A stretch of 62,072 bases of DNA, the filler included, from a candidate division TA06 bacterium SM23_40 (GTDB lineage Bacteria > LJUI01 > SM1-40): NCBI GenBank assembly GCA_001303705.1. It is 5 parts of 5 records of this genome, joined end to end, with 100 filler letters (N's around TTAATTAATTAA, not from the genome) between each part and the next. Parts side by side here need not be neighbours in the genome. Positions count along the whole stretch, not along the records: positions 1 to 28,212 come from LJUI01000016.1; 4 more parts are not named here. One strand, written 5' to 3'. Each line of letters begins with the position of its first letter. Position 1 is the first letter of the stretch. Below, one piece after another: positions 697-53,820 of the stretch. Below the pieces are notes generated by a model. It was given only the letters and a program-made list of their open reading frames with translations. It made no database searches and was not told the origin of the DNA. Both the position numbers and the translations under genes were made by a program.

Positions 697-1887
697 TCAC
701 CAGACGATCTGCTCCTCCCCGCTGGACGATGCTGGCTCGTGCACGGTGAACCAGATCGTATCCTCGTCCCACACTTCCTCCGGGAATCCCGCGCTGGCCG
801 AGAGACGCCATGTGCCCAGCGGAGTCTGCCACGGTACGTTGTACCGTTGGAGCGTCTGCCAGGAGGAGTTCGCCGCGAAGGTCGTGTACGCCGGACCCTG
901 CAGCGGATTATGCGGCCACGGCTCCCCTTCGGGTGTCCACAGCTCGACGATCCCCCAGCAGGACTTGGGTTCATCGTGGCAGTTCACGACGCTGTACAGC
1001 ACTCTCCAGCGGTCTCCTGCGGCGACGGACTTCGATTCCGGTGTCACATAGACCACCAGCTCCTTCGACTGGTCGAAGAAGAGCGCACCCATGTCGCCCC
1101 GCGTACTATCAGGATCAAGGGAATCAGGATGGCCTGCATCGATGCTGGGTGAGGGCCAGAGCAGGCGTACGTCCCGTCTTCCGACCCGCACGAACATCGG
1201 ATCCTCGTCCAGGTTCCCGAGCCCCGTCCAGCCGCCCTCGACGTTGCTGTAGGTGACGATGGGCTCACTGCTCAGATCCACGTGGATACTGCTCCCCGTC
1301 CCTGCCTGGTTGTTCCAGACGATGCTGTTGAAGACCGTAGGGTAGGAGTGATAGAAGCAGACTATCCCGCCGCCTTCGTCAGCCTGGTTCCCCCCAATGG
1401 TATTGCTTGCGATGATCGGGTCAGAGGCAGTACAGGCGATTCCCCCGCCATAGTACGCCACATTCCGAACGATCACATTGCCGACGATCGTCGGCGAAGA
1501 AGCCAGGGCACATCGAATCCCTCCCCCGCCGCCAGGAAACCACCCGTTCGTGATCGTGAACCCCTTTATCACTGACTCCGGACCCTCTCCACGTGTGAGG
1601 TAGAAGGCACGGTGGGGATCGGAGCTGTGACCTTCACAATCGATGATCGTTGCCTCCGGTCCGTTCTCCGACATGACCACGATCGCCTTGCCCCAGAAGT
1701 CGATATCGCGGTTTCCGTCCCCCGTGTACATACCATCTGCCACGACTACAGTATCACCATCGACCGCGGCATCGACTCCCGCCTGGATGGTGGGATACTC
1801 GCTCGGTACACTGAGAACGAATGCCGAGAGATCGAGACACAGCCCGAGCACCATACCAACACCTGCGATAATCGCCAACGTCCTCAC
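697..1887 (-). CDS. Secreted right-handed parallel beta-helix (Pmp-like GGGI repeat) protein with shared C-terminal domain
   Basis: Likely GTG start at 1887 with a purine-rich RBS and signal peptide; VPSEYPTIQAGVDAAVDGDTV motif; GGGIxC repeats; SPSIDAGHP...DMGA motif; ~105-aa C-terminal module. Confidence 0.85.
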   Translation of the reverse strand: MRTLAIIAGVGMVLGLCLDLSAFVLSVPSEYPTIQAGVDAAVDGDTVVVADGMYTGDGNRDIDFWGKAIVVMSENGPEATIIDCEGHSSDPHRAFYLTRGEGPESVIKGFTITNGWFPGGGGGIRCALASSPTIVGNVIVRNVAYYGGGIACTASDPIIASNTIGGNQADEGGGIVCFYHSYPTVFNSIVWNNQAGTGSSIHVDLSSEPIVTYSNVEGGWTGLGNLDEDPMFVRVGRRDVRLLWPSPSIDAGHPDSLDPDSTRGDMGALFFDQSKELVVYVTPESKSVAAGDRWRVLYSVVNCHDEPKSCWGIVELWTPEGEPWPHNPLQGPAYTTFAANSSWQTLQRYNVPWQTPLGTWRLSASAGFPEEVWDEDTIWFTVHEPASSSGEEQIVW

Positions 1888-2064
1888 TGTCTTTCTCCCT
1901 CCCCTTGCCCCTCGGGGACGTTCAGCCGGTCCTTCTCCCAGGAGAACCCGCTGTGAACCATCTCTATATCCCCTCCACAGCCCGAATCGCGCCCACAGCC
2001 CTCCACTTCGCCCCCTCCAGGCTTGCCAAGACAGGGTGGGGGCCGGAGCCCGTCTTCTATTCAC

Positions 2065-3702
2065 CTACGGCTCCACCACCCTGATAGTGAACCTGTCCGT
2101 GTCGTACAGCGTTGCCGGAGGAAGTCCGATGCCGGAGCGATATCCGTACGTGCCGGCCACCGCGGACAGAGGCACATCGTGAACGAGGTGGCGTTGCACC
2201 ACGGCCCCTGCCGGCAGGGTGTAGTGGTCCGGCCCCAGAACGGTCCGAGTGCCGCCGCCCGGCAGGACTGTCTCACTGAGCACCCACATCAATTCAGGCT
2301 GTGCCCAGCGGTTGATCACGGTGTATGTCACTCCGAGCTGCCCGCCGGCAGAGACCTGAGATGTGTCAGGCGTCAGATAGAGCGTCAGATAGTCATCCTG
2401 GTCGAAGAAGTACGCACCTATGTCGCTCCGCGTGCCGTCCCCATCGAGTGAATCCGGATGTCCGGCGTCGATGCAGAGCGACCCCCAGAGAAGTCGAAAA
2501 TCGCGTCGCTCCGCCAGGACGAAGAGCGGATCCACGTCGAGGTTGCCCTCGCCGGGCCACCCCCCCTCCACATCGCAGTATGTCACCACCGGATACGACT
2601 CGAACTCCGCTATGATCTCGTCAGCCTCATTGCCCCAAAGGACGGTATTATTGATGGCGGGCGAACTGAAGCCCCACGCGTAGAGGCCGCCTCCCAAGGA
2701 ATCTGCGGAGTTTGCAGTTATCGTATTTCGATTGATAGCAGGCGATGCGAACGAGAGGAGATACATCCCCCCTCCTAACAGAGAGCTGTTGCGGGCGATG
2801 ACATTGCGAGCGAACGTCGGAGACGCCGCGATGCACGAAACGCCGCCGCCATACCAGCCGCTGCTGTTGCCGACGATCCAGTTGCGCTCGATGAACGCCG
2901 CGGAGTAGTCGGCACAGAAGAGCCCACCAGCATCCACCTCCGATATGTTGCCCATTACCACGTTCCTGACGACGAGTGCCGGTGACCCCATGAGGCCGAT
3001 GGCGGCACCAGAGGCAGCGGTATTGGCCACGATCAGATTGTCTCTTATTTTTGGAGTAGAGTGCATGCACGAGATGGCACCGCCGGTCGTCCCGTGGTTG
3101 CCCCGGAAGGTGTTCCGTTCGATGATCGGCGCTGAATCTTCGCAGCGGATCCCGCCGCCGCCACAGATCCCTCACGTGCCCAGAGCGGTGTTATTCAGGA
3201 ACAGGTTCCCCACGATGAGTGCCATCGACGTATCTGCACAGTAAATCCCGCCACCATGATAGGCCACGTTGTCCTCTAGGATGCACTCTGTAATCGTCGG
3301 CGAGGATCCTTCGCACAATATCCCCCCACCGAAATCATAGGTAAAGTACCCGCCCCTGATGCCGAGCCCCTGAACCACAGAAGATTCGCGCTCCCCCTTG
3401 TTGAAGTGGAACGCGCGATGCCAATCGGAAGGGGTCCCCTGGCAATCGATGACCGTGGCTTCGGGCCCGTTCTGGGAGGACACGAGGATCGCCTTCCCCG
3501 TGAACTCCAGGTCGCGGTTCCCCGTGCCGGTGTACACCCCGTCGGCTATGAGCACGGTATCCCCATCGACTGCCGCATCGATCCCTGCCTGGATCGTCGG
3601 CTCTTCGGCGGGCACATGGATGACGAGCGCCAAAGCGCCCGTGGTCGGCGTGAGTAACATTGTCAGGACAGCCAGAATCGACAACCGGTTTCTGTTCATC
3701 AC
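2065..3702 (-). CDS. Secreted parallel beta-helix protein with in-frame UGA at codon 177 (candidate selenocysteine, UxxC) and shared C-terminal domain
   Basis: ORFs 3172-3702 and 2065-3066 share a frame and are separated by a single TGA (3172-3174). Read-through gives NNTALGT-U-GICGGGGIRCEDSAPIIERN and keeps the repeat register. Confidence 0.75.
3135..3174 (-). promoter_or_regulatory. SECIS-like hairpin after the in-frame UGA
   Basis: UGA G GGAUCU GUGGCG GCGGCG GGAUC CGCUGC GA AGAUUC: lower stem GGAUCU/AGAUUC, upper stem GCGGCG/CGCUGC, G-starting loop about 19 nt after UGA. Confidence 0.5.
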
Positions 3703-4100: not shown

Positions 4101-4373
4101 CCCTACCAGAGCCCCCTCCATTAACAACGCACCTGAGAAACGAACCCCGAAACGGCCCTCGCCCCGCCCATTTCGAGCCCTTCTCTATTGGTAGGAGCGG
4201 CTGTCACTCCGTTCCCCGTGCGGCGGACTCCACATACCAGGGAACACAGTCACTCATTTCCCTGTTCCCGCCAATAGGAGATGGCATCCGCACGGTCTCT
4301 CCAGGTGAGGAGCAGAAGTCGGCAAGCCCTCGACGGACCAGGGCATCCACCGTCCAACAGAAGGAGTGTTCTC

Positions 4374-6257
4374 ATGAAACGAGCAGCGGTCATGAGCGGA
4401 GCTCTCGTAATGGTGATGGCGTTTGGCGCACTGGCATCGACCTCGTTCGTCGGCATCACCGCTCCCCTTCGCGAACAGATGGCGATGGTCAACTCAGACG
4501 AGCTGATACGCGTCAACCTGGTGATGACCAATCACCTCGACCCCGGATACCTGTCAGAACGCGCCGCCGGCATGAGCAAGGTCGAGCGACGCCGCTTCGT
4601 GCTGGATGAGCTCAAGAGATTCTCGGAGAGCTCCCAACGGGAAGTGCGGGGATATCTCGAGAAGATGGAAGCGTCGGGACACGTAGACAACATCCAGATC
4701 ATCTGGATGGCAAATGCGATCAACTTCGAGGCCACTCCCGCGGTGATCGAACGCCTTGCCCGTTTGAAGGGAGTGCGGAGCATCGACTGGGACGAGCCGT
4801 TCCCCCTCGAGACCCTCCTCGATCTGCCGGAGAAGACCCCGCACAGGGTGGGCGCTGGCGACCAGTATCTCTGGAACCTGGAACGGATCAGGGCCCCTGA
4901 GGTCTGGGATCTCGGCTTCACCGGACAGGGGGTCGTCATCGGCAACATCGACACGGGCACGGACTACAACCACCCCGATCTGGCTGACCACATCTGGATC
5001 AACGAAGGTGAGATTCCCAATAACGGGATAGACGACGACAACAACGGCTATATCGATGACTGGCGGGGGTGGGATTTCGTCAACAACGATAACGATCCCA
5101 TGGACCAGAGCGGCCACGGCACCAGTACCGCCGGGATCGCTGCCGGGGATGGAACCGGAGGGACCCAGACCGGCGTCGCCCCTGATGCCGAGATCATGAT
5201 CCTCCTGAGCGGCGGCGAGGGACCGGCCTGGGCGGCTGTCCAGTATGCCGCCGACAACGGCGCCGATGTCGTCACCAGTTCACAAAGCTACAAGTTCGGC
5301 TATCACCAGCCGGATTACGGCATGTTCCGCCAGATGGCCGAGTATGAACTGGCGGCGGGCGTCATCCATTCCAATTCGATCGGGAACCAGGGTGGCGATC
5401 CGGCGCACCCCATCCCCTGGAACATCTCCACGCCGGGGAATTGCCCGCCGCCGTGGCTTCACCCGGACCAGACGCTCATCGGCGGGCTGTCGTCGACACT
5501 CGGTTGCGGCGCAACCGACATCAACGACATCATCAAGAGCTACTCCGGGCGCGGGCCGGCTGCCTGGGAAGACATCCAGGCGTACTACCCATCCTATCCT
5601 CATCCGATGCCGCCAGAGTACTGGGACTACCCCTACGACAACGGGAACCAGATGGGTCTGTTGAAGCCCGACGTGAGTGCGCCGACCGACGTGACGACGA
5701 CGCAGCTGGGTGGCGGGTATACCAGCGGCTTCAGCGGCACATCCGCAGCCACCCCCCATCTCGGCGGTTCGCTCTGCCTCATGCTCTCTGCGGCGCCCTC
5801 TGCCACGCCTGCCATGCTCTGCGAGGCGATCCAGATGACGGCGCTCGATCTGGGTGCCCCGGGCAAGGATAACTTGTATGGTGCCGGAAGGATCGACGTG
5901 TACGAGGCAGTGCAGGCGCTCATGGTCGGCGCGGTCTCTCTCCAGCTGGCACCGGGAACCTCGTCAGTGCCGCAGGGCGGGACGTTTGAGATCGAGGTGA
6001 CGGCCACCAATAACACCGGTGAGGTGCAGGTGTTCGACGCGTGGGCCGACGTCGTTCTCCCGAACAGCAATCCCTATGGGCCGGTGGCAGGTCCCAGGAC
6101 AGTGACCCTCGGCCCAAACCAGACCCGGGTCCGGACAGTCACACAGCGGATTCCTTCGACTGCGCCGCTGGGAGCCTACACGTACTGCGGGAAGATCGGC
6201 ACCTATCCTGATGACGTTATGGATCAGGACTGCTTCGACATCGAGGTGACACCGTAG
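4374..6257 (+). CDS. Secreted subtilisin-like S8 serine protease with shared C-terminal domain
   Basis: AAGGAG RBS and ATG at 4374; signal peptide and prodomain; catalytic motifs IDTG, HGTSTAG and SGTSAATP; GIDDDNNGYIDD Ca-binding-type loop. Confidence 0.93.
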   Translation: MKRAAVMSGALVMVMAFGALASTSFVGITAPLREQMAMVNSDELIRVNLVMTNHLDPGYLSERAAGMSKVERRRFVLDELKRFSESSQREVRGYLEKMEASGHVDNIQIIWMANAINFEATPAVIERLARLKGVRSIDWDEPFPLETLLDLPEKTPHRVGAGDQYLWNLERIRAPEVWDLGFTGQGVVIGNIDTGTDYNHPDLADHIWINEGEIPNNGIDDDNNGYIDDWRGWDFVNNDNDPMDQSGHGTSTAGIAAGDGTGGTQTGVAPDAEIMILLSGGEGPAWAAVQYAADNGADVVTSSQSYKFGYHQPDYGMFRQMAEYELAAGVIHSNSIGNQGGDPAHPIPWNISTPGNCPPPWLHPDQTLIGGLSSTLGCGATDINDIIKSYSGRGPAAWEDIQAYYPSYPHPMPPEYWDYPYDNGNQMGLLKPDVSAPTDVTTTQLGGGYTSGFSGTSAATPHLGGSLCLMLSAAPSATPAMLCEAIQMTALDLGAPGKDNLYGAGRIDVYEAVQALMVGAVSLQLAPGTSSVPQGGTFEIEVTATNNTGEVQVFDAWADVVLPNSNPYGPVAGPRTVTLGPNQTRVRTVTQRIPSTAPLGAYTYCGKIGTYPDDVMDQDCFDIEVTP

Positions 6258-7919: not shown

Positions 7920-10385
7920 TCACTCTTCGACGACCGTGAACAGGAACGTATCGTCGTCGATAAGGTTATTCGGCGGCGTCCCTATCTGGGCCGTGTACCC
8001 ATACTCACCGAGCGGCGCGATCATCGGCACGTTGTGCGACACCGGCACCACCAGCACCTCACTGGGCTGAAGCGTCACCGGCACCGGGCCGAGCAGATAC
8101 CGTGTTCCGCCCCCCGGGAGCTGCACGAGGGTTCTCGCATAGAAACTCTGCATCTGCGTCGTCAGATTCGTGACAGTCGCAGTGTAGCTCAGAACCCCGC
8201 CTCGCGGCACGATCGTCACGTCCGGCGCTAGCTCGACCGTCGCGATCTGAGGAGCCGACACCTCGACGTCATCGATATGCCAGCCTTCCCGCACAACACC
8301 CTGATCACTCCCGAACCGGAACCTCAGTCTCACTGCCCCCATGTAATCGGACAGATCGAATACCGCCTCGCTCCAGTCATAGGCGCCGGAGTACAGCGGG
8401 GTACCGACGGGGAACGGGCCTGTAGTCCCGCGGGACGTGTAGGGGTACCCGCCCTCGGGTTCAACCTCTACCCAGTTCACGCCCCCATCGACGGTAATCT
8501 CGACGATGCCGCCATCGTAGGCTCGGCCGGGATAGGCCTCTGAGGTCTCGGCCTCCACCCAGTGCCACATGGTGAGTGTCGAATTGGGATCGAGGCCGAA
8601 CGGCGGGGTCATCAATCCCGCGTCGTCGAAATTGGAATAGGGACCGGTCCCCGTATCGCCGCACTTCCAGCTGTAGCTGCCGGCGGGGGTGTGGTTCCGC
8701 TCTGTGCTCAGATGCCACTCGTCGTTGAATCCCTGCGTGATGGCCTCGTGTGTCCAATCGCCGACACCTGCCTCCATATCGTCAGCGTATCCGGTTGTGA
8801 CGACCCATACCTCGAACGTATCGGTCCAGGCATGCCCGCCACTGGCGGTGATCTCGATAGCGATCGGCAGCGCATAGGGTACCGGCGTGGCGTGCGCGAT
8901 CTGGATGACAAACGGATCCGATGCGTTATTCCCGGTTCCGATCGGCGGGATATCCCCGAAGCTCGAGGTACCCTCGATCACCTCGAGGTACGGATCCCAC
9001 TCCGTGATCGTCCCTTCCACATTGTTCGCTTCAGCCATACCCGAGTTGCGGACCTTGACGATCAGATCTGCTACCTCCCCGGGATCGATCCGCATATTGG
9101 CATTGCCGCCGACTGTATCGTCAATGAGGTGGCCGTTGTAGTGCACGTCCACCGAACCCGCCACCCTCATCATGAACAGGTTCGCCCCCAGGTTCTCCTG
9201 GAACTGGCCGAGGATGGTGTTCGTGTCCGGCTGCCAGAATGCGCTCCCGACCTCATTGCTGAACCCGAAAATCTTGGGCTTCGTCGTCTGCTCTCCATAC
9301 TCGTAATCGATGCTGCCGCCGTTCACGAGGTAGAGGAGCTCCCACGGGGTCCCCGGGTCGTAGTTGTTCACCCTCGTCAGACTATCGGCCAGCTCGACAT
9401 ATATGTCGTGATCGGGCGTGTAGATATAGTCATAACCCCAGGGATAGAGACAGAGATCCCCGTAGCTGTGGTAGTCCTGGCAGAACGTGAACTCGTGGGA
9501 TTCCATCAGGTCGCGCATCGCCTGGGTCTCCGGCTCGGAGAACGGAGCGGGACCTCGATACGTCTCGCTCGACGGAGTCGGGCTGGAACCGATATTGTCA
9601 TAGCCCCACATGTACCCGTAGTTCCGATTGAGATCGACGCCGTAGATGCCGCCGCCGTTATCTCTCCTGTTCTTGCGCCACATACCGCTCGAGTATGTCT
9701 CGTTGTACACATAGCCATCGGGATTCACCACCGGCACAAACCAGACCTCTCTCGTGTCCACGATCTCAGTGATCTCTGGATTGATGCCGTAGTTCTCCAC
9801 GAGGTGCTCGATCGTATAGATGCAGATCGAGCAGCCGATCGGCTCGCGCGCATGATGGACACCGTCGAACAGCAACTCGGGCTCGTCAGGATCCTCGTAT
9901 GTCGGATCATCCGAGACCTTCATCGCCCAGAGGATACGGTCCTCCCAGGTACCTCCGATATTGATCTTCGGAGTGGTGATATCAGGATACGCCGCATGGA
10001 TCATATCGAGGGCGTCGATCATCTCCTGGTAGGTATAGTACGGGCCGAAGGCGATTCGGCCCGCCCCGAACTGCTTCTCTCGATGGGCCGCGAGGTCAGG
10101 GATCAATACCTCCACATCGAGGCCGAGCTCAGTCTCGAGAAATCTCACCTCCTCGGGCGTCGTCACGATCTCGACGTAGGTGCCTGCCTTGACCGTGGCG
10201 ATATCGAGATCGAGCAGCCTTATCTGCTGCACAACCTGTTCCATATAGTCCTTCGATTCCGGATAGACCCTGGCCAGCATCTGGGTAGCTGCAGCACCTG
10301 CTTCGGGCCTTGCCAGCGCAATGCCCAGCGCGCAGACGATGGCAAGTGCCAGCCCCTTCATAGATAGTGCCCGGACCGATCTCAT
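7920..10385 (-). CDS. Secreted M14 zinc carboxypeptidase (carboxypeptidase T-like) with shared C-terminal domain
   Basis: HAREP, VNPDG, WRKNRR, GVDLNRN, PFSEPET and DYHSYG motifs; signal peptide; accessory beta domains. Confidence 0.92.
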   Translation of the reverse strand: MRSVRALSMKGLALAIVCALGIALARPEAGAAATQMLARVYPESKDYMEQVVQQIRLLDLDIATVKAGTYVEIVTTPEEVRFLETELGLDVEVLIPDLAAHREKQFGAGRIAFGPYYTYQEMIDALDMIHAAYPDITTPKINIGGTWEDRILWAMKVSDDPTYEDPDEPELLFDGVHHAREPIGCSICIYTIEHLVENYGINPEITEIVDTREVWFVPVVNPDGYVYNETYSSGMWRKNRRDNGGGIYGVDLNRNYGYMWGYDNIGSSPTPSSETYRGPAPFSEPETQAMRDLMESHEFTFCQDYHSYGDLCLYPWGYDYIYTPDHDIYVELADSLTRVNNYDPGTPWELLYLVNGGSIDYEYGEQTTKPKIFGFSNEVGSAFWQPDTNTILGQFQENLGANLFMMRVAGSVDVHYNGHLIDDTVGGNANMRIDPGEVADLIVKVRNSGMAEANNVEGTITEWDPYLEVIEGTSSFGDIPPIGTGNNASDPFVIQIAHATPVPYALPIAIEITASGGHAWTDTFEVWVVTTGYADDMEAGVGDWTHEAITQGFNDEWHLSTERNHTPAGSYSWKCGDTGTGPYSNFDDAGLMTPPFGLDPNSTLTMWHWVEAETSEAYPGRAYDGGIVEITVDGGVNWVEVEPEGGYPYTSRGTTGPFPVGTPLYSGAYDWSEAVFDLSDYMGAVRLRFRFGSDQGVVREGWHIDDVEVSAPQIATVELAPDVTIVPRGGVLSYTATVTNLTTQMQSFYARTLVQLPGGGTRYLLGPVPVTLQPSEVLVVPVSHNVPMIAPLGEYGYTAQIGTPPNNLIDDDTFLFTVVEE

Positions 10386-10457
10386 CTTGTCTCCCCCTCT
10401 CCTGCACGGTGACATTCCAGTTCATCCCGGGATCGTCCTCCGCCCCGGGCGACTCCC

Positions 10458-10522: not shown

Positions 10523-13500
10523 TCAGCGCCTCCCGCCGATGAGCACGATCTTCCGTATGGCCACGTCGTCCGAGGCCTCCAGCCGGCAGAGATAGATACC
10601 CGGAGCCACGGCACGACCCTGGCCGTCCCGGCCATCCCACATCACCTCACCCGGTCCGGCATCGACAAGGCCTTCCTGCAGCACGGCCACGAGCTGGCCA
10701 AGGGTGTTGTACAGACGGACAGAGACATGGGACCGACGGGGCAGAGAGTAGGCGATCCTGCACGTTCCGGGCGCCGGATTGGGATGACTCTGGCCCGCGA
10801 AGAACAGCGCCGGCCGGTCACCGCCACCAGAGCCTTCCCCTTCGGCGACTCCCGTGGTAGGAAGCCAGACGAGGATCCGGAACATGAGTGTGTCGCGCTC
10901 GGCCGTATCCGAGATGCCGTCCAGGCAGAACGATGTGTACACGACGCTGTACACACTCGTGGCGACACGCACGCCCGCCGAGCCGGAACTCAAAGGATAA
11001 ATGGGGCCGGGGATCCAGTAGAGGAAGGTCACCCCCGGGTCGACCGGATCGATCTCCTCAGCGAATGTCTGGGTGTTGGGCGGGCCCGAAAGATCCAGGA
11101 TCAGGCCGTCCCCGATTGTGTCCCCCGGCGCCCCCAGCAGTTGATCCCACCCGTTGTTGTATCCGACGTCAGCCTGCACGAAGTCCGCATGCATGTAGTC
11201 ATGATAGAACGCATTCGCCTGGGTGCCGCCTTGTGTCAGCGCGGTACCCAGTTGCTGTCCCGAGATGAAGAGATGGCCGCCATCGAGAAGGAAGCTGCGG
11301 AGCGCCTCCTGTTCCTGTTGGGCCGGCGCCCCTGCGGGGTAGATGGCGACGAGCTCACCACCCCCATACTGGCCCAGTGTGGCCTCATCGATCGGGCCGC
11401 GATAAAAAGCATTCCACATGTCGTGATCCACGCCGAGATTGTTGAGCGAACTGAGATAAGCATCAAGCGCCGGATAGATCGCTCGCGCACCGGGCAGCGG
11501 GTTCAGGTGCGCCACCAACCAGTCATTAACGAGATAGTGTTCGTAGACGATGCGCTCACCCTGCGCAAAGAACGAGAGCGAGGAGAAGCCGGCCAGGCTA
11601 TCGCCGTTCCCATCGTTTGCGAACTCGTCGCTCGCCGTGACATCCACATGAAAGTCCGATTCGAAAGAAGGCGACCAATAGCCACCGTAGGTACGGTCGT
11701 CCGGAAGTCCATCCCCGTGCGCTCCATCATCATACAGGGGAATCGTCGCGATGACCCCGCTATCCGGCGCTGCGATGGCAGCCTCCACATCCTGAAGGTC
11801 GCCGCCTTCCCAGATGGTCGTCGTGATCGTCACCTGGCCGCCTACCGTGCAGTAACGTGGCGTGACATCGACATCGAGGAACTCCGGCGGAAACTCGTCG
11901 CTCCCGACCACTGGAATGAGGAGGGTATCGCTGCCGACGGGCTGGTTAGCCGAATCCTGGAATTCGACCGCGAACCCCAATGTCTCACCGTCGGGACAGT
12001 CTGAGAGGACCTTGAACCAGTATGCTGGCACATCATATGAGTGCACGCCCGGGCCGACATCGCCGAATTCCATGTGTCCCATCGACCAGTCCACGCCCTC
12101 GAACGGTGCGACCCAGGGGCTATCGGTAGAGAGCGCAGCCGTCACGCCATCAGCCGGGCGGACGCTCTGGTTGTTCAGGTCGAGGCGGAGAAGGATATAT
12201 TCTCCCGGATCGACCTCGCCATCATCGTCTCCGATATTGTACAGATAGCTCTCGTCGCCCCCGGCGACTACGGTATACGCTTCTACTGTGAGGTCCGGAT
12301 CGAGATTTCCGGCCCAGCGGAGCATGAACAGGTTCGCTCCCAGATTCTCCTCACATTGTTCGATGATGATATTCGTATCCGGCTCCCAGAACCAGTCTCC
12401 CACCTCGTGGCTCACGCCGAAGATCTTGTTCTTGAAGATCTGCTCACCGTATTCGTAGTCGATACTCCCGCCATTGACGATATAGAGAACCTCCCAGAGC
12501 GTTCCATACTCGTACCCGTTGCCCACCGTGAGGCTCTCGGCGATCACGCGATAGAACGCGTCATCCTCGGTGTAGACGAAGTCGTACCCATACGGCAACA
12601 AGCACAGGTCGCCAAAGCTGTGGAAGTCCTGGGCGAAGATGAATTCGTGGGAGTCGATCAGACTCCGCATGGCCTGCGTCTCCGGCTCTGAGAACGCGTA
12701 TGGACCGCGGTAGGTCTCGTCTTCGGGATACGGGCTCGAGCCAAGGTTGTCGTATCCCCACATATATCCCCAGTTCCGATTGAGATCGACCCCATAGATC
12801 CCCCCGCCGTTGTCCCTGCGATTCTTCCGCCACATCCCGTCCGGCAACGTCTCGTTGTACACATAGCCGTCAGGGTTGACGACCGGCACGAACCAGGCCT
12901 CGCGCCCATCAACGATCTCGGTGATGTCGGGAATAAGGCCGTAGTATTGACAGAGATACTCAATGGTATGGAGACAGATCGAGCATCCGATCGGTTCACG
13001 TGCATGCTGTACACCATTGATCAGCACTTCCGGCTCATCCGGATCTTCAACTGTCGGATCGTCCGAGACCTTCATCGCCCAGATCGTTCTCCCCTCCCAA
13101 GAGGCGCCGAGATCGATCTTCTCCGTGGTGATGTCGGGGAACCGGGCATGGAGCGAGTCGAGCTCCTCCACCATCTCCGCATAGGTGTAGTACGGACCGA
13201 AATCAAACGGCATATAGCCGAATTGCTCCAGGCGATGAGCGGCGAGGTCCGCGATGACTACCTCAGCTACCGCCCCCCGGTCCTCCAGAGAGACGAGCTC
13301 CTCGCGCGTCGCGATAATGTCGACCCAGAGCTCAGGGTCGGTCCTGAGCGTGGCGATATCGAGGCCGAGCCGGAGGAACTCGCGCGCCTCCTCTCGGGAC
13401 TCAGGGTAGACTCTCAGCAACATCTTCGCCGGCTGGCCAGGAGAGAGGCTCTCACTCGACCCCGCCCGGCTCGTGGCTGGGCCAGCTGCTAACGAGACAG

Positions 13501-13612
13501 CCGCCGCCCCCAGCAGAATGACCAGCCCCACACACAAGGCTGGTCTTTTCAAAACGGACGGACCGTACCTACGATTCTTCGCGAATGTCACCGAGTTCCA
13601 AGGCTGCATCAC
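10523..13612 (-). CDS. Secreted M14 zinc carboxypeptidase with FlgD-Ig / T9SS-type C-terminal domain
   Basis: HAREP, WRKNRR, GVDLNRN and DFHSFG motifs; LYDDGAHGD Ca-binding-type motif; ends PNP...LYNTLGQLV...WDGRD...GIYLCRL...KIVLI. Confidence 0.92.
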   Translation of the reverse strand: MMQPWNSVTFAKNRRYGPSVLKRPALCVGLVILLGAAAVSLAAGPATSRAGSSESLSPGQPAKMLLRVYPESREEAREFLRLGLDIATLRTDPELWVDIIATREELVSLEDRGAVAEVVIADLAAHRLEQFGYMPFDFGPYYTYAEMVEELDSLHARFPDITTEKIDLGASWEGRTIWAMKVSDDPTVEDPDEPEVLINGVQHAREPIGCSICLHTIEYLCQYYGLIPDITEIVDGREAWFVPVVNPDGYVYNETLPDGMWRKNRRDNGGGIYGVDLNRNWGYMWGYDNLGSSPYPEDETYRGPYAFSEPETQAMRSLIDSHEFIFAQDFHSFGDLCLLPYGYDFVYTEDDAFYRVIAESLTVGNGYEYGTLWEVLYIVNGGSIDYEYGEQIFKNKIFGVSHEVGDWFWEPDTNIIIEQCEENLGANLFMLRWAGNLDPDLTVEAYTVVAGGDESYLYNIGDDDGEVDPGEYILLRLDLNNQSVRPADGVTAALSTDSPWVAPFEGVDWSMGHMEFGDVGPGVHSYDVPAYWFKVLSDCPDGETLGFAVEFQDSANQPVGSDTLLIPVVGSDEFPPEFLDVDVTPRYCTVGGQVTITTTIWEGGDLQDVEAAIAAPDSGVIATIPLYDDGAHGDGLPDDRTYGGYWSPSFESDFHVDVTASDEFANDGNGDSLAGFSSLSFFAQGERIVYEHYLVNDWLVAHLNPLPGARAIYPALDAYLSSLNNLGVDHDMWNAFYRGPIDEATLGQYGGGELVAIYPAGAPAQQEQEALRSFLLDGGHLFISGQQLGTALTQGGTQANAFYHDYMHADFVQADVGYNNGWDQLLGAPGDTIGDGLILDLSGPPNTQTFAEEIDPVDPGVTFLYWIPGPIYPLSSGSAGVRVATSVYSVVYTSFCLDGISDTAERDTLMFRILVWLPTTGVAEGEGSGGGDRPALFFAGQSHPNPAPGTCRIAYSLPRRSHVSVRLYNTLGQLVAVLQEGLVDAGPGEVMWDGRDGQGRAVAPGIYLCRLEASDDVAIRKIVLIGGRR

Positions 13613-28212: not shown

Positions 28213-28312
28213 NNNNNNNNNNNNNNNNNNNNNNNNNNNNNNNNNNNNNNNNNNNNTTAATTAATTAANNNNNNNNNNNNNNNNNNNNNNNNNNNNNNNN
28301 NNNNNNNNNNNN
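28213..28312. other. Artificial contig spacer
   Basis: N run + TTAATTAATTAA (stops in all six frames) + N run. Confidence 0.97.
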
Positions 28313-36789: not shown

Positions 36790-36889
36790 NNNNNNNNNNN
36801 NNNNNNNNNNNNNNNNNNNNNNNNNNNNNNNNNTTAATTAATTAANNNNNNNNNNNNNNNNNNNNNNNNNNNNNNNNNNNNNNNNNNNN
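36790..36889. other. Artificial contig spacer
   Basis: N + TTAATTAATTAA + N. Confidence 0.97.
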
Positions 36890-44844: not shown

Positions 44845-45341
44845 ATGGAGAAGGGAGTTCTGGTCATCGGTGGTGGCATCAGCGGGATGCAGGCAGCCCT
44901 TGACCTGGCCAATTCAGATATCAAAGTCCATCTGGTGGAGAGGTCGCCGTCGATCGGCGGGATGATGGCGCGACTCGACAAGACCTTCCCCAGCATGGAC
45001 TGCGCGATATGAATGCTCGGCCCGAAGATGATGGATGTCGGTCGACATCCGAACATCACACTCTGGATGTATAGTGAAGTAGTTGGGCTCGGGGGTGAGG
45101 CGGGAGACTTCACCGCCGGAGTACGGCGGCGTGCCACCTTTGTCGATTGGGATAAGTGCACAGGCTGTGCAGCATGCGGCGACGTTTGCCCGGTGAAGAT
45201 GTGGAATGAGTTCGAGAGCGGCCTGTCCCGGCGCGCAGCCATCTACCGGCCGTTTCCTCAGGCCGTTCCCAACAAATTCGTCATCGACCGTCAGGGCACC
45301 CCGCCCTGTCAGGCCGCCTGTCCCCTGCACGTGAATGCGCA
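44845..45341 (+). CDS. hdrA: Heterodisulfide reductase A-like (HdrA/HdrL) selenoprotein, 3' truncated
   Basis: [28 protein letters not shown] with TGA at 45010-45012 where HdrA normally has Cys; [20 protein letters not shown]. Confidence 0.9.
45027..45057 (+). promoter_or_regulatory. Bacterial SECIS element
   Basis: GGATGTC-GGTC-GACATCC perfect stem with a GGU loop 27 nt after the UGA; lower GATG/CATC pairing. Confidence 0.75.
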
Positions 45342-45441
45342 NNNNNNNNNNNNNNNNNNNNNNNNNNNNNNNNNNNNNNNNNNNNTTAATTAATTAANNN
45401 NNNNNNNNNNNNNNNNNNNNNNNNNNNNNNNNNNNNNNNNN
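45342..45441. other. Artificial contig spacer
   Basis: N + TTAATTAATTAA + N. Confidence 0.97.
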
Positions 45442-50555: not shown

Positions 50556-53390
50556 ATGAACCAGAATCGGATCGGCGTTCTCGCCGTCATCGTCCTTGCT
50601 TTCTTCCTTGCGCCGCGCTCCCCCGCCTGGACCCCTGTCCAGGGGCCTGTCGAGGGAGTGTGGGACCTAGAAGGAAGCCCGTACATCGCCGTCGGCGACA
50701 TCCAGATCTGGGGGGGAGATACACTCGTCATCGAGCCGCTCGTCGAGGTGCGATTCAATGCTGGCCTCACGTTCACCGTGTATGGCACGCTCCTCGCCCA
50801 GGGTACGGCGGACAGCCTGATCACCTTCACCTCCCACCAGCCGTATCCCATGGCCGGGGACTGGGGTCCCATCTATTTCTATTCGAATGAGCCGGAGGGA
50901 TCAGTGCTCGACTACTGCATCGTCGAGTACGGCGGCGCACCGGGACCGGGCACCATCAGGATCGAGTACCTGTCGAACCCGACGATCACGCACTGCCTCA
51001 TCCGTGAAAGCTCCAACTACGGGATCTGGTGCCACAACCAGACCACTCCCCTCATCGCCGACTGCATCATCCGCGATAACGAGAAGCATGGCATCGCGTG
51101 CGAGAACATGGCAGCGCCCACGATCTCGGATAACACGTTCATCGGCAACTCGTACGCAGCCTATGTCGATGGCTCCTCCCAGCCGGTACTGAGCGGCAAC
51201 ACGGCGTCCGGCAACACGCACGATGGGGTCGAAGTGCACGGTTCCCTCATTGTCGATGCACACTGGTCCGACCTGCCGTACTACCTCTCCGGAGGCCTGT
51301 ACGTTGAGCAGGGGGTCACCCTGACGATCGACCCGGGAATGAAGATCGTCTCTGCATCAGCGGTCTCGCTCACCGTGTACGGCACGATCCATGCTGACGG
51401 CACGCCCTCAGATCCGATCACGTTCACGAGTCAGTTCGGTTCTTCCGACTGGGGCCGGTGGGGCCACCTCGGGCTCCTTGAATCATCGACGGGGAATATC
51501 ATCGATGCCTGCATCTTCGAATACGGGGGCTCCGACAATCAGGGACTGATCCTGTGCCAGGGCGCCGAGGCGGCGATCAGCAACTCGCTCATCCGGTACA
51601 GCCCGAATGCCGGGATCCGGGTGACAGCGGATGCCGATCTGAGCGTGACGGGAACAACCTTCATCGGTACGGAGTGGCCGATACGGGCTGATGCCTCCGC
51701 CTTTCTGACAGTCGCAGGCAACACCGCCCAGGGTAATGTGCACGACGGGATATCGATCCAGGGTACCGCAGCGAACGGCTCCACATGGCATCCCGACCTG
51801 CCGTACATCGTCGCCGAGTACGTCTCTGTCGATGCCGGGGACACCGTGACCCTCCTGCCGGGTACAGAAGTACAGTTCCTCCCGTACAGGGGAATGACAA
51901 TCCGGGGCACTCTCCTTGCGGTGGGCACGCCGTCGGACTCAATCATCTTCACCTCATCCCAACTCTATCCCGGTGGCGGCGACTGGAACGCCGTCGATTT
52001 CATCGACAGCAGCTCGAGCGGCAGCATCCTCCAGTACTGCACCCTCGCCTACGGAGGGGCGAATGGCACGGGAACGGTCAGAGTGTCGGATTACTCTGAC
52101 CCGACGATCGCGAATTGCCGTATCACCAGGAGTGCCGTGGACGGCGTTCAGTGTGTCAATCGTGCTGCTCCCACGATCTCCCGATGCCTCATCGAAGCCA
52201 ACGATCGCTACGGCATCTTTATTTCGTCGTTCGCCGAACCGGATATCAAGGACTGCCGCTTCTTTACGAATGAGTTCGCCATCTTCGCAGACGGCGATGT
52301 GGCACCTACGCTCGTGCGGAACACGGCCTATGGAAATCTCCATGATGGCGTAGCTGTGAGCGGTACCATCTCCTCCGACGTGACGTGGAGCAATCTCCCC
52401 CACATCGTAATCGCGGGAATGGAAATCGCGGCAACAGCGACGCTGACGGTCGATCCAGGGGTCGATGTCCAGTTCGTCCCCGACGCGCACCTCAATGTCT
52501 ACGGGAAACTCGAGGCCGACGGAGAGCTCGTCGATCCTATCATCTTCACCGCTGAACCCGGGGCATCCGAGAGCGGCCACTGGGGACATCTGGGATTCAT
52601 CGGTCCGTCCTCGAGCCAGAATCTGCTCGACTACTGCATTGTCGAGTTCGCCGGCAGCGACGGCCTGGGAGCGCTCTTCTTCGAGTCCTCCGCCGGAGGA
52701 ACGGTCGCCAGATCAGAGGTCCGGGCCAATCTCGCCCACGGGATCGAGTGCCGCGATCACGCATCACCCTCGGTGCTCGGATCATCCCTGCTCGCCAATG
52801 CGAGCTCCGGCGTCCGCGCCGAGGGAGAATCAACCCCCACCATCACCAACAGCAATATCGTCGGCAACGCGCGGTACGGTGTGGAGAACCTGGATCCACT
52901 GGTGACTATCGATGCCGAGGATAACTGGTGGGGGAGTCCGAGCGGCCCCGGGGGCGCAGGCCCGGGAACGGGAGACAGCGTGACCGCCTGGGTAGACTAC
53001 GACCCGTGGAGGGACAGCCCGTACCTGCCCTCAGTGACGATCTCCCTCACTCCTGATACCATCCCCATCGTCATCCCGCCGCAGGGCGGAGGCTTCGGGT
53101 ACACGGGCGTCGTCATCAACCACACCTCTCAGCAGCAGACGCTCGCCGGATGGATAGACGTCCGGCTCCCCAACGGCACGAGATACGGGCCGCTCCTCGG
53201 CCCGATCACCCTCAATCTCGCGCCCGAGGAGACGCTGAGCGTCCATCTCCAGCAGAACGTCCCGGGGATGGCTCCGGCAGGGCACTATCGGTTCAACGGA
53301 TATCTGGGGACCCACCCTTCTCCGGCGAGCGACTATTCGTGGTTCGCGTTCGAGAAGGCGGGGCCGCTTGGTATCGTGAGAGAAGACTGA
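50556..53390 (+). CDS. Large secreted parallel beta-helix repeat protein with shared C-terminal domain
   Basis: GGAGG RBS; signal peptide; four repeats of GTL.A.GT..D.I.FTS...GxW; DAEDNWWGSPSGP; ~105-aa C-terminal module. Confidence 0.9.
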   Translation: MNQNRIGVLAVIVLAFFLAPRSPAWTPVQGPVEGVWDLEGSPYIAVGDIQIWGGDTLVIEPLVEVRFNAGLTFTVYGTLLAQGTADSLITFTSHQPYPMAGDWGPIYFYSNEPEGSVLDYCIVEYGGAPGPGTIRIEYLSNPTITHCLIRESSNYGIWCHNQTTPLIADCIIRDNEKHGIACENMAAPTISDNTFIGNSYAAYVDGSSQPVLSGNTASGNTHDGVEVHGSLIVDAHWSDLPYYLSGGLYVEQGVTLTIDPGMKIVSASAVSLTVYGTIHADGTPSDPITFTSQFGSSDWGRWGHLGLLESSTGNIIDACIFEYGGSDNQGLILCQGAEAAISNSLIRYSPNAGIRVTADADLSVTGTTFIGTEWPIRADASAFLTVAGNTAQGNVHDGISIQGTAANGSTWHPDLPYIVAEYVSVDAGDTVTLLPGTEVQFLPYRGMTIRGTLLAVGTPSDSIIFTSSQLYPGGGDWNAVDFIDSSSSGSILQYCTLAYGGANGTGTVRVSDYSDPTIANCRITRSAVDGVQCVNRAAPTISRCLIEANDRYGIFISSFAEPDIKDCRFFTNEFAIFADGDVAPTLVRNTAYGNLHDGVAVSGTISSDVTWSNLPHIVIAGMEIAATATLTVDPGVDVQFVPDAHLNVYGKLEADGELVDPIIFTAEPGASESGHWGHLGFIGPSSSQNLLDYCIVEFAGSDGLGALFFESSAGGTVARSEVRANLAHGIECRDHASPSVLGSSLLANASSGVRAEGESTPTITNSNIVGNARYGVENLDPLVTIDAEDNWWGSPSGPGGAGPGTGDSVTAWVDYDPWRDSPYLPSVTISLTPDTIPIVIPPQGGGFGYTGVVINHTSQQQTLAGWIDVRLPNGTRYGPLLGPITLNLAPEETLSVHLQQNVPGMAPAGHYRFNGYLGTHPSPASDYSWFAFEKAGPLGIVRED

Positions 53391-53720: not shown

Positions 53721-53820
53721 NNNNNNNNNNNNNNNNNNNNNNNNNNNNNNNNNNNNNNNNNNNNTTAATTAATTAANNNNNNNNNNNNNNNNNNNNNNNN
53801 NNNNNNNNNNNNNNNNNNNN
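53721..53820. other. Artificial contig spacer
   Basis: N + TTAATTAATTAA + N. Confidence 0.97.

Follow-up and report, generated by a model that had tools for sequence, protein, structure and literature searches.

An in-frame TGA that probably encodes selenocysteine in a predicted exported beta-helix protein of a candidate division TA06 bacterium

The subject of this analysis is a gene of the candidate division TA06 bacterium SM23_40 (GenBank assembly GCA_001303705.1) that gene callers divide into two open reading frames (ORFs) and whose single internal TGA codon probably specifies selenocysteine (Sec, U). The DNA analyzed, here called the window, is a joined stretch of 62,072 nucleotides (nt) made of five contigs, which are separated by linkers at 28213-28312, 36790-36889, 45342-45441, and 53721-53820 (each consisting of 44 N, TTAATTAATTAA, and 44 N) and which all have a G+C fraction of 0.59-0.61. 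The gene lies on the first contig (1-28212). Gene callers report an ORF of 176 residues and a second ORF of 321-333 residues; the first-pass annotation of this DNA placed both in one frame, split by a single TGA at 3172-3174, and this was confirmed, on the minus strand. The gene is therefore called as two ORFs because one in-frame TGA breaks a single frame. The features of the gene are listed below.

3702..2065, minus strand: whole gene, 545 codons through one TGA, followed by a TAG stop at 2067-2065
3628..3702, minus strand: probable signal peptide, residues 1-25 (boundary ...TTGALA/LVIHVP), by inspection
2563..3624, minus strand: right-handed parallel beta-helix, approximately residues 27-380, with the coil repeat GGG-I-x-C ... 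N-x-I-x-x-N
3174-3172, minus strand: in-frame TGA (tca on the plus strand), the sole internal stop, putatively read as selenocysteine U177
3163..3174, minus strand: U-G-I-C codons, within an insert in the turn ahead of the third GGG coil
3142..3161, minus strand: hairpin resembling a selenocysteine insertion sequence (SECIS), with a 7-bp stem GCGGCGG/CCGCUGC and a 6-nt loop CGGGAU
3134..3170, minus strand: full two-stem minimum-energy fold, which adds a 6-bp lower stem
2074..2388, minus strand: C-terminal beta-sandwich, residues 439-543, common to paralogues, from the structural model and Foldseek

Translation through the TGA gives a protein of 545 residues (P0001) that reads, as the first-pass annotation had proposed, ...NNTALGT-U177-G-I-C180-GGGGIRC..., and no further stops or frameshifts occur across the 545 codons. 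Candidate starts are a GTG at 3702 and an ATG one codon later at 3699, the latter being used by P0122, a near-identical protein from another assembly. The N-terminus, MNRNRLSILAVLTMLLTPTTGALA followed by LV, resembles a Sec-type signal peptide by inspection, in agreement with the export signal noted earlier.

The internal stop is conserved among diverged relatives. A search with the 176-residue N-terminal ORF listed 120 short relatives, and the site was examined in the 45 with the highest similarity. Only thirteen extend as far as the site. In nine of them (P0122-P0129 and P0131; 52-98% identical) the last residue is precisely the one that precedes the TGA, with endings that include ...NTALGT, ...NLALTT, ...NYAYSG, and ...NISTGT. 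The other four (P0133, P0134, P0165, and P0188; 51-56% identical) continue past the site and do not have the insert. C-terminal ORF pieces (P0022, 67%; P0080, 59%; P0093, 58%) begin just downstream of it, and a protein search with 8000 scored candidates found no full-length protein more than about 50% identical. Every member of the orthologue group that was obtained is split at the TGA codon. The first-pass annotation had allowed that relatives might carry tryptophan or another residue there; none was seen, since nine stop at the site and the orthologue with DNA available has TGA. An in-frame UGA retained at one codon among orthologues is expected of a bacterial selenoprotein gene, and the codon is TGA in all three stretches described next.

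Among the best 80 of 598 stretches examined in a metagenome contig scan, which left out the Joint Genome Institute (JGI) orthologues P0124, P0126, and P0128, orthologue DNA was found in L009 (the window's own contig), L010, and L011 only. L010, which was assembled independently and matches the window at 98-99% identity, shares its TGA. In L011, an orthologue of 60% identity, a single contig holds both halves of the gene and the aligned codon is TGA; Cys180 is kept, because the L011 sequence continues G-T-C-GGGGIRC. The codon also persists in independent assemblies, a further point on which the earlier annotation had placed weight: contigs from three studies (X1, X3, and X5) bridge 3172-3174 and show no other letter, and the X6 contigs do not bridge the TGA. 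In X5, the contig of a relative matches the window solely over 3142-3178 (the TGA plus 33 nt), and its flanks are unlike the window, yet encode orthologue-type sequence. Scans with P0001 extended the comparison. Genome contigs yielded eight loci, the best at 45-53% identity and none with a stop; viral contigs yielded no match; and no orthologue was found in two related genomes, 401 genomes of one phylum, or 285 of another, with 3-5 first-look candidates scored per genome.

These data bear on whether the gene is simply a nonsense-mutated pseudogene or whether the TGA is a mistake of assembly or sequencing. Such an event would leave one in-frame stop in one of the very many paralogues, as is seen here, and one paralogue (L032) does carry an in-frame TAG. 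However, nine relatives, the most distant of them 52% identical, have their stop in that alignment column, the codon is TGA in L011, the same TGA recurs in L010 and in contigs of three studies, and the 545 codons hold no other stop or frameshift. Descent of the relatives from one recent clone is excluded, since their identities are 52-66%. We consider a pseudogene or error extremely improbable.

Constraint on the nucleotides that follow the TGA is unusually strong. The window and L011 are 64% identical in DNA over the gene and 45% identical at third positions, and among all 30-nt stretches of the 1.6-kb gene those that start at the TGA are the best conserved (93%). The longest exact run measures 21 nt and is found 12 nt past the first base of the TGA; no other run exceeds 14 nt. 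In this segment the two genes have seven identical codons in a row, versus no more than four elsewhere; the expectation from gene-wide codon identity is about 0.003. Chance comes nowhere near explaining how well the stop and the nucleotides that follow it are conserved. The 35 codons that separate the TGA from the following ATG are in frame and free of indels in the two sequences, encode a mostly identical protein with synonymous differences, and make one complete helix coil in the structural model.

This pattern is pertinent to the possibility that the TGA is a true, conserved stop, so that the gene would produce a 176-residue secreted N-terminal cap and perhaps a separate C-terminal protein from the ATG 36 codons downstream. 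Gene callers do split the gene in every relative, the window, L011/P0080, and P0093 all have a methionine at residue 213, and the searches found the orthologue group neither in a cysteine form nor in any other full-length form. Against this, the 35 codons from the TGA to that methionine are conserved as protein, in frame and with synonymous changes, and complete a helix coil; the C-terminal piece would have no signal peptide, proper folding is unlikely for a helix truncated behind its second coil, and P0022 begins at a different place. The exceptional nucleotide conservation after the TGA would also have no role. We consider a true stop improbable.

The conserved nucleotides can form a hairpin of the kind that directs selenocysteine insertion in bacteria. 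A 2026 review (PMC13188914, Fig. 2 legend) gives a consensus for the bacterial SECIS (bSECIS): an apical loop of 3-9 nt, an upper stem of 4-16 bp, 16-37 nt from the UGA to the loop, a G at loop position 1, 2, or both, with G or U as the usual next letter, and a free energy of -7.5 kcal/mol or lower. The window hairpin combines a 7-bp stem with a 6-nt loop, and the same register is possible in L011. Its loop, CGGGAU, has G at position 2 followed by another G and starts 17 nt after the UGA in the window fold. The energy of the hairpin alone is -12.7 kcal/mol in the window and -12.5 kcal/mol in L011 (17-nt register). The first-pass annotation had described a two-stem hairpin with a G-starting loop about 19 nt after the UGA; the hairpin and its two stems in the window stand, while the loop lies at 17 nt and its G is second. 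Absence of a conserved hairpin in homologues had been named among the grounds against a selenoprotein, and in the L011 orthologue the hairpin is present letter for letter, within the 21-nt exact run. Its retention at one position in diverged relatives and the conserved RNA hairpin behind it make selenocysteine the most likely meaning of the TGA.

The use of selenocysteine in this organism and its lineage was considered next to these findings. One further feature of the window is relevant.

44845-45341, plus strand: hdrA fragment, cut by a contig end, with a TGA at 45010-45012 at a DCAIU (CxxU) site

A CxxU motif is tabulated for the verified HdrA selenoprotein (PMC9312934, Table 1). The hdrA fragment has its own hairpin at 45032-45051, with 8 bp and a GGUC loop 27 nt after the UGA, which fits the consensus, and hdrA is a second selenoprotein gene in the bin. 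In the related genomes with the closest paralogues (G001, G002, and G013), SelA, SelB, and tRNA-Sec were above the cut-off in all three. General reassignment of TGA (genetic codes 4 or 25) was rejected as an explanation, because TGA ends 17 of 27 picked window ORFs, being the commonest stop, and also terminates the L011 gene itself. A scan of the window for in-frame TGA codons was swamped by the spurious long ORFs of G+C-rich DNA.

A different possibility is that the UGA is read through as a standard residue, either by near-cognate insertion of tryptophan, cysteine, or arginine or by programmed read-through stimulated by the hairpin. The stop, the downstream frame, and the conservation of the hairpin would look alike in that case, and the evidence for Sec machinery in the source genome is indirect. 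On the other hand, the hairpin conforms to the SelB-type consensus both in geometry and in the G-G of its loop, the conserved cysteine three residues on forms a classic U-x-x-C pair, the hdrA of the bin has TGA at a known Sec site, and related genomes possess the Sec machinery. Bacteria are not known to rely on efficient programmed read-through of UGA to a standard residue for making structural proteins, which also counts against this explanation, and we regard it as quite improbable. Judged from sequence, the called ORFs are probably two parts of a single gene. Its product would be an exported right-handed beta-helix protein, approximately 545 residues long, with selenocysteine inserted at UGA177.

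The fold of the read-through protein is well defined. It matches Pfam PF13229 (Beta_helix) with 60.4 bits versus a gathering cut-off of 25.9, which places it in that family, and an AlphaFold model built with 99 aligned relatives has a mean predicted local distance difference test (pLDDT) score of 92.6, with about 13 regular three-stranded coils followed by the C-terminal beta-sandwich. Residues 4-17, in the signal-peptide region, form a helix with low pLDDT. Within the beta-helix the score dips solely at the block 171-180, which holds U-G-I-C, to 84. Foldseek neighbours of the model are generic beta-helix enzymes and tailspikes, at template modelling (TM) scores of 0.2-0.45 and 10-17% identity; they comprise PL6 lyases (1ofm, 7o84, 5gkd), the AlgE4 epimerase (2pyg), the pectate lyase Pel9A (1ru4), a GH87 glucanase (6k0v), and the P22 tailspike (2vfm). 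These matches are weak, and therefore no enzyme family or active site is assignable. The beta-helix assignment of the first-pass annotation accordingly agrees with Pfam, with the model, and with the structural neighbours. P0001 shares its fold and coil repeat with the Pfam families PF13229 (Beta_helix) and PF05048 (NosD); it is apparently secreted and is encoded beside secreted S8 and M14 peptidases. The PF05048 score is 37.6 bits, with no single stretch passing alone, and NosD proper (TIGR04247) was rejected at 25.2 bits versus a cut-off of 300.

The U-G-x-C sequence stands apart from the rest of the family. Coils typically end in ...N-x-A, followed by two or three residues and then GGG. In the turn columns of LGT-U-GIC, P0001 has seven residues and 79 of the 87 aligned paralogues have three or fewer, which bears out the earlier remark that this loop is longer than the equivalent turns; a pair of cysteines in that turn occurs in none of the 87. 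U-G-x-C is a lineage-specific insert, because the turns of paralogues are short and without a cysteine pair. A regular-expression search of 398 proteins found a CxxC-GGG turn solely in P0001 and two distant giant proteins, and a HMMER search with residues 101-260 returned as its best 150 matches giant multi-repeat proteins that were of no use for finding cysteine forms. The family as a whole is very large, with 3638 matches among 8000 scored candidates and with 48 and 76 matches in two of the related genomes.

Several observations weigh against selenocysteine at this site and are considered together here. The 2026 review states that nearly all known selenoproteins have a cysteine-form homologue (PMC13188914), and no clear one was found for this protein: Cys-x-x-Cys is present in the turn of 0 of the 87 aligned paralogues, and a search aimed at residues 150-215 gave seven matches among 82 candidates, none of them with a cysteine pair. 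The sole candidate cysteine form seen is P0165 (180 aa, 53% identical), which reads ...RNFLMGHDT-C-HFIK-GGGI; BLAST aligns its cysteine with U in a longer, poorly alignable turn, and the protein ends two residues later. The first-pass annotation had taken the hdrA TGA at 45010 as a sign that this genome recodes UGA. That codon is real and sits at a CxxU site, but hdrA is on the third contig and the gene on the first, so that the link between them rests on binning. Within the window itself, selA, selB, selD, and tRNA-Sec were not found (ARAGORN, 0 hits; Rfam, 0 hits; Pfam on 42 window ORFs). The DNA comparison of the family rests on two independent full sequences only. Because both have an identical stem, covariation is absent; the stem consists of Gly-Gly-Gly-Ile-Arg-Cys codons, a common coil motif, so that part of the conservation could be at the protein level. 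The 6-bp lower stem of the window is not kept in L011, whose minimum-energy fold shifts the register by 3 nt to a 9-nt loop with 14-nt spacing. The fold energies are no better than those of shuffled sequences (z = 0.14, -0.67, and 0.55); hairpin energy alone is no evidence, because G+C-rich shuffles fold equally well.

If the codon does specify selenocysteine, the mechanism of its decoding is the ordinary bacterial one. SelB carrying Sec-tRNA(Sec) would bind the hairpin encoded by the next coil (GGGGIRC) as the ribosome nears the UGA, selenocysteine would be inserted, and translation would proceed through the remaining coils and the C-terminal beta-sandwich, after which the protein would be exported via its N-terminal signal peptide. 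Sec177 and Cys180 would then belong to the U-G-x-C insert, whose 4-5 residues make one turn of the helix longer. This pair would most likely serve as a selenol/thiol site, either cycling to a selenylsulfide or binding a soft metal or a sulfur species; our best guess is an Se/S pair, redox-active or binding metal or sulfur, on the longer surface turn. We further hypothesize a Sec-only selenoprotein family, in which selenocysteine arose together with the new U-G-x-C insert, not by replacing a catalytic cysteine, and in which the SECIS was drawn from the codons of the next GGG-I-R-C coil. This more specific proposal is tentative, and we lean slightly against it.

E. coli fdhF is the prototype of a gene decoded through SelB and a SECIS. 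Like the bacterial genes of this type, the gene described here has an in-frame UGA kept among orthologues, an intragenic hairpin directly downstream, and a cysteine three residues away. It differs in that its host is a secreted beta-helix repeat protein, in that no cysteine-form homologue was found, and in that the putative selenocysteine lies in a lineage-specific turn insert and not at a site shared with cysteine relatives. Exported thioredoxin-like UxxC selenoproteins have been cataloged as 'Hypothetical protein GOS_C' (NCBIfam NF045500; PMC9312934, Table 1; PMC13188914, Table 1). These share with P0001 a signal peptide, a U-x-x-C motif, and an origin in uncultured sediment and marine bacteria, but they are thioredoxin-like, whereas P0001 is a right-handed beta-helix. 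The 'UGSC-containing protein' NF041046, listed in the accessible 2026 table, has a similar U-G-x-C motif, and the resemblance is limited to these four residues. NCBIfam contains many selenoprotein models; its scan with P0001 (E ≤ 0.01) returned only TIGR04247 and no selenoprotein model such as NF045500 or NF041046, which places the protein in none of those families.

The beta-helix family is likewise absent from the 87 families of the 2022 review (PMC9312934, Table 1) and from the nine families added by deep-Sep. In the accessible 119-family table of the 2026 review (PMC13188914), 'helix', 'NosD', PF13229, PF05048, PF07602, PF02415, and PF22842 each occur 0 times. The main text of BSepDB contains no beta-helix term, its list of 111 families being in a separate supplement, and a literature search on selenoproteins and beta-helices returned nothing relevant by title or abstract. 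The statement in the first-pass annotation that no selenoprotein family of this type has been described thus agrees with the 2022 catalog and with the accessible table of the 2026 one. From the sequence data at hand, the gene most likely represents an uncataloged family of secreted beta-helix selenoproteins, miscalled as two ORFs.

Three other paralogues in the searched DNA carry in-frame stops. In the related genome G002, L094 (G002:C20; 519-1685) encodes a 388-residue secreted beta-helix with an in-frame TGA at 888-890 in the context ...MANDI-U-PYC-NGGGFYC..., which places U-x-x-C in a turn ahead of a GGG coil; its downstream hairpin has no G in the first two loop positions, and no relatives were found at E ≤ 1e-50 in 401 genomes. 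L025 has, at nt 615 (plus strand), a beta-helix paralogue with an in-frame TGA in a coil turn (...ENGSA-stop-WGGGVSC...) and no adjacent cysteine; this codon could be Sec or a mutated codon. In L032, at nt 5042 (plus strand), the in-frame TAG lies in ...GGGGIYWYFYC-stop-PTISHN..., and this paralogue is probably a broken copy or an error.

The gene is adjoined downstream by a paralogue on the same strand.

697..2064, minus strand: adjoining downstream paralogue, 455 aa, 42% identical, without the TGA-bearing coil and insert

Beside these two beta-helix genes lie three large genes for secreted peptidases, at 4281-6257 (plus strand), 7920-10415 (minus strand), and 10523-13612 (minus strand), of which Pfam assigns one to the S8 subtilases and two, with additional C-terminal domains, to the M14 carboxypeptidases. 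The fourth contig carries, at 50556-53390 (plus strand), the gene of a third and larger beta-helix protein (944 aa; PF13229, 154.7 bits), which has no in-frame stop. The C-terminal domain of P0001 aligns in Foldseek over about 110 residues with RbmA-like and complement-type sandwich domains. A beta-sandwich of about 100 residues with the pattern ...LTPD...G..L.V.Y...N......W..........P... is common to the beta-helix proteins and to an FG-GAP-type repeat protein encoded upstream in L011 (2-1201, plus strand), and no Pfam match to it was found in the window (697-2064 and 2074-2388, minus strand) or in L011 (2-1201). This domain might serve these proteins generally in sorting or anchoring.

Because gene callers cut the gene in every relative found, the family is invisible as a whole protein in protein databases. 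If our interpretation is correct, it would add to the bacterial selenoproteome a new family in a secreted parallel beta-helix fold, outside both the 2022 catalog (87 families) and the accessible table of the 2026 catalog (119 families). The Sec site would have an unusual origin, in a lineage-specific loop insert for which cysteine-form relatives were not found and with a SECIS taken from a repeat-coding motif. Should the Sec-only proposal also hold, these uncultured bacteria of anoxic sediment would have a new extracellular selenol site, built on a scaffold that resembles those of carbohydrate enzymes. Taken with the U-P-Y-C/TGA paralogue of G002, the protein would suggest that beta-helix surface proteins are a recurrent and overlooked home of selenocysteine. 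The selenol would be placed outside cells that live in anoxic sediment, and extracellular selenium chemistry, whether in metal, sulfur, or redox handling, would become testable with one defined protein.

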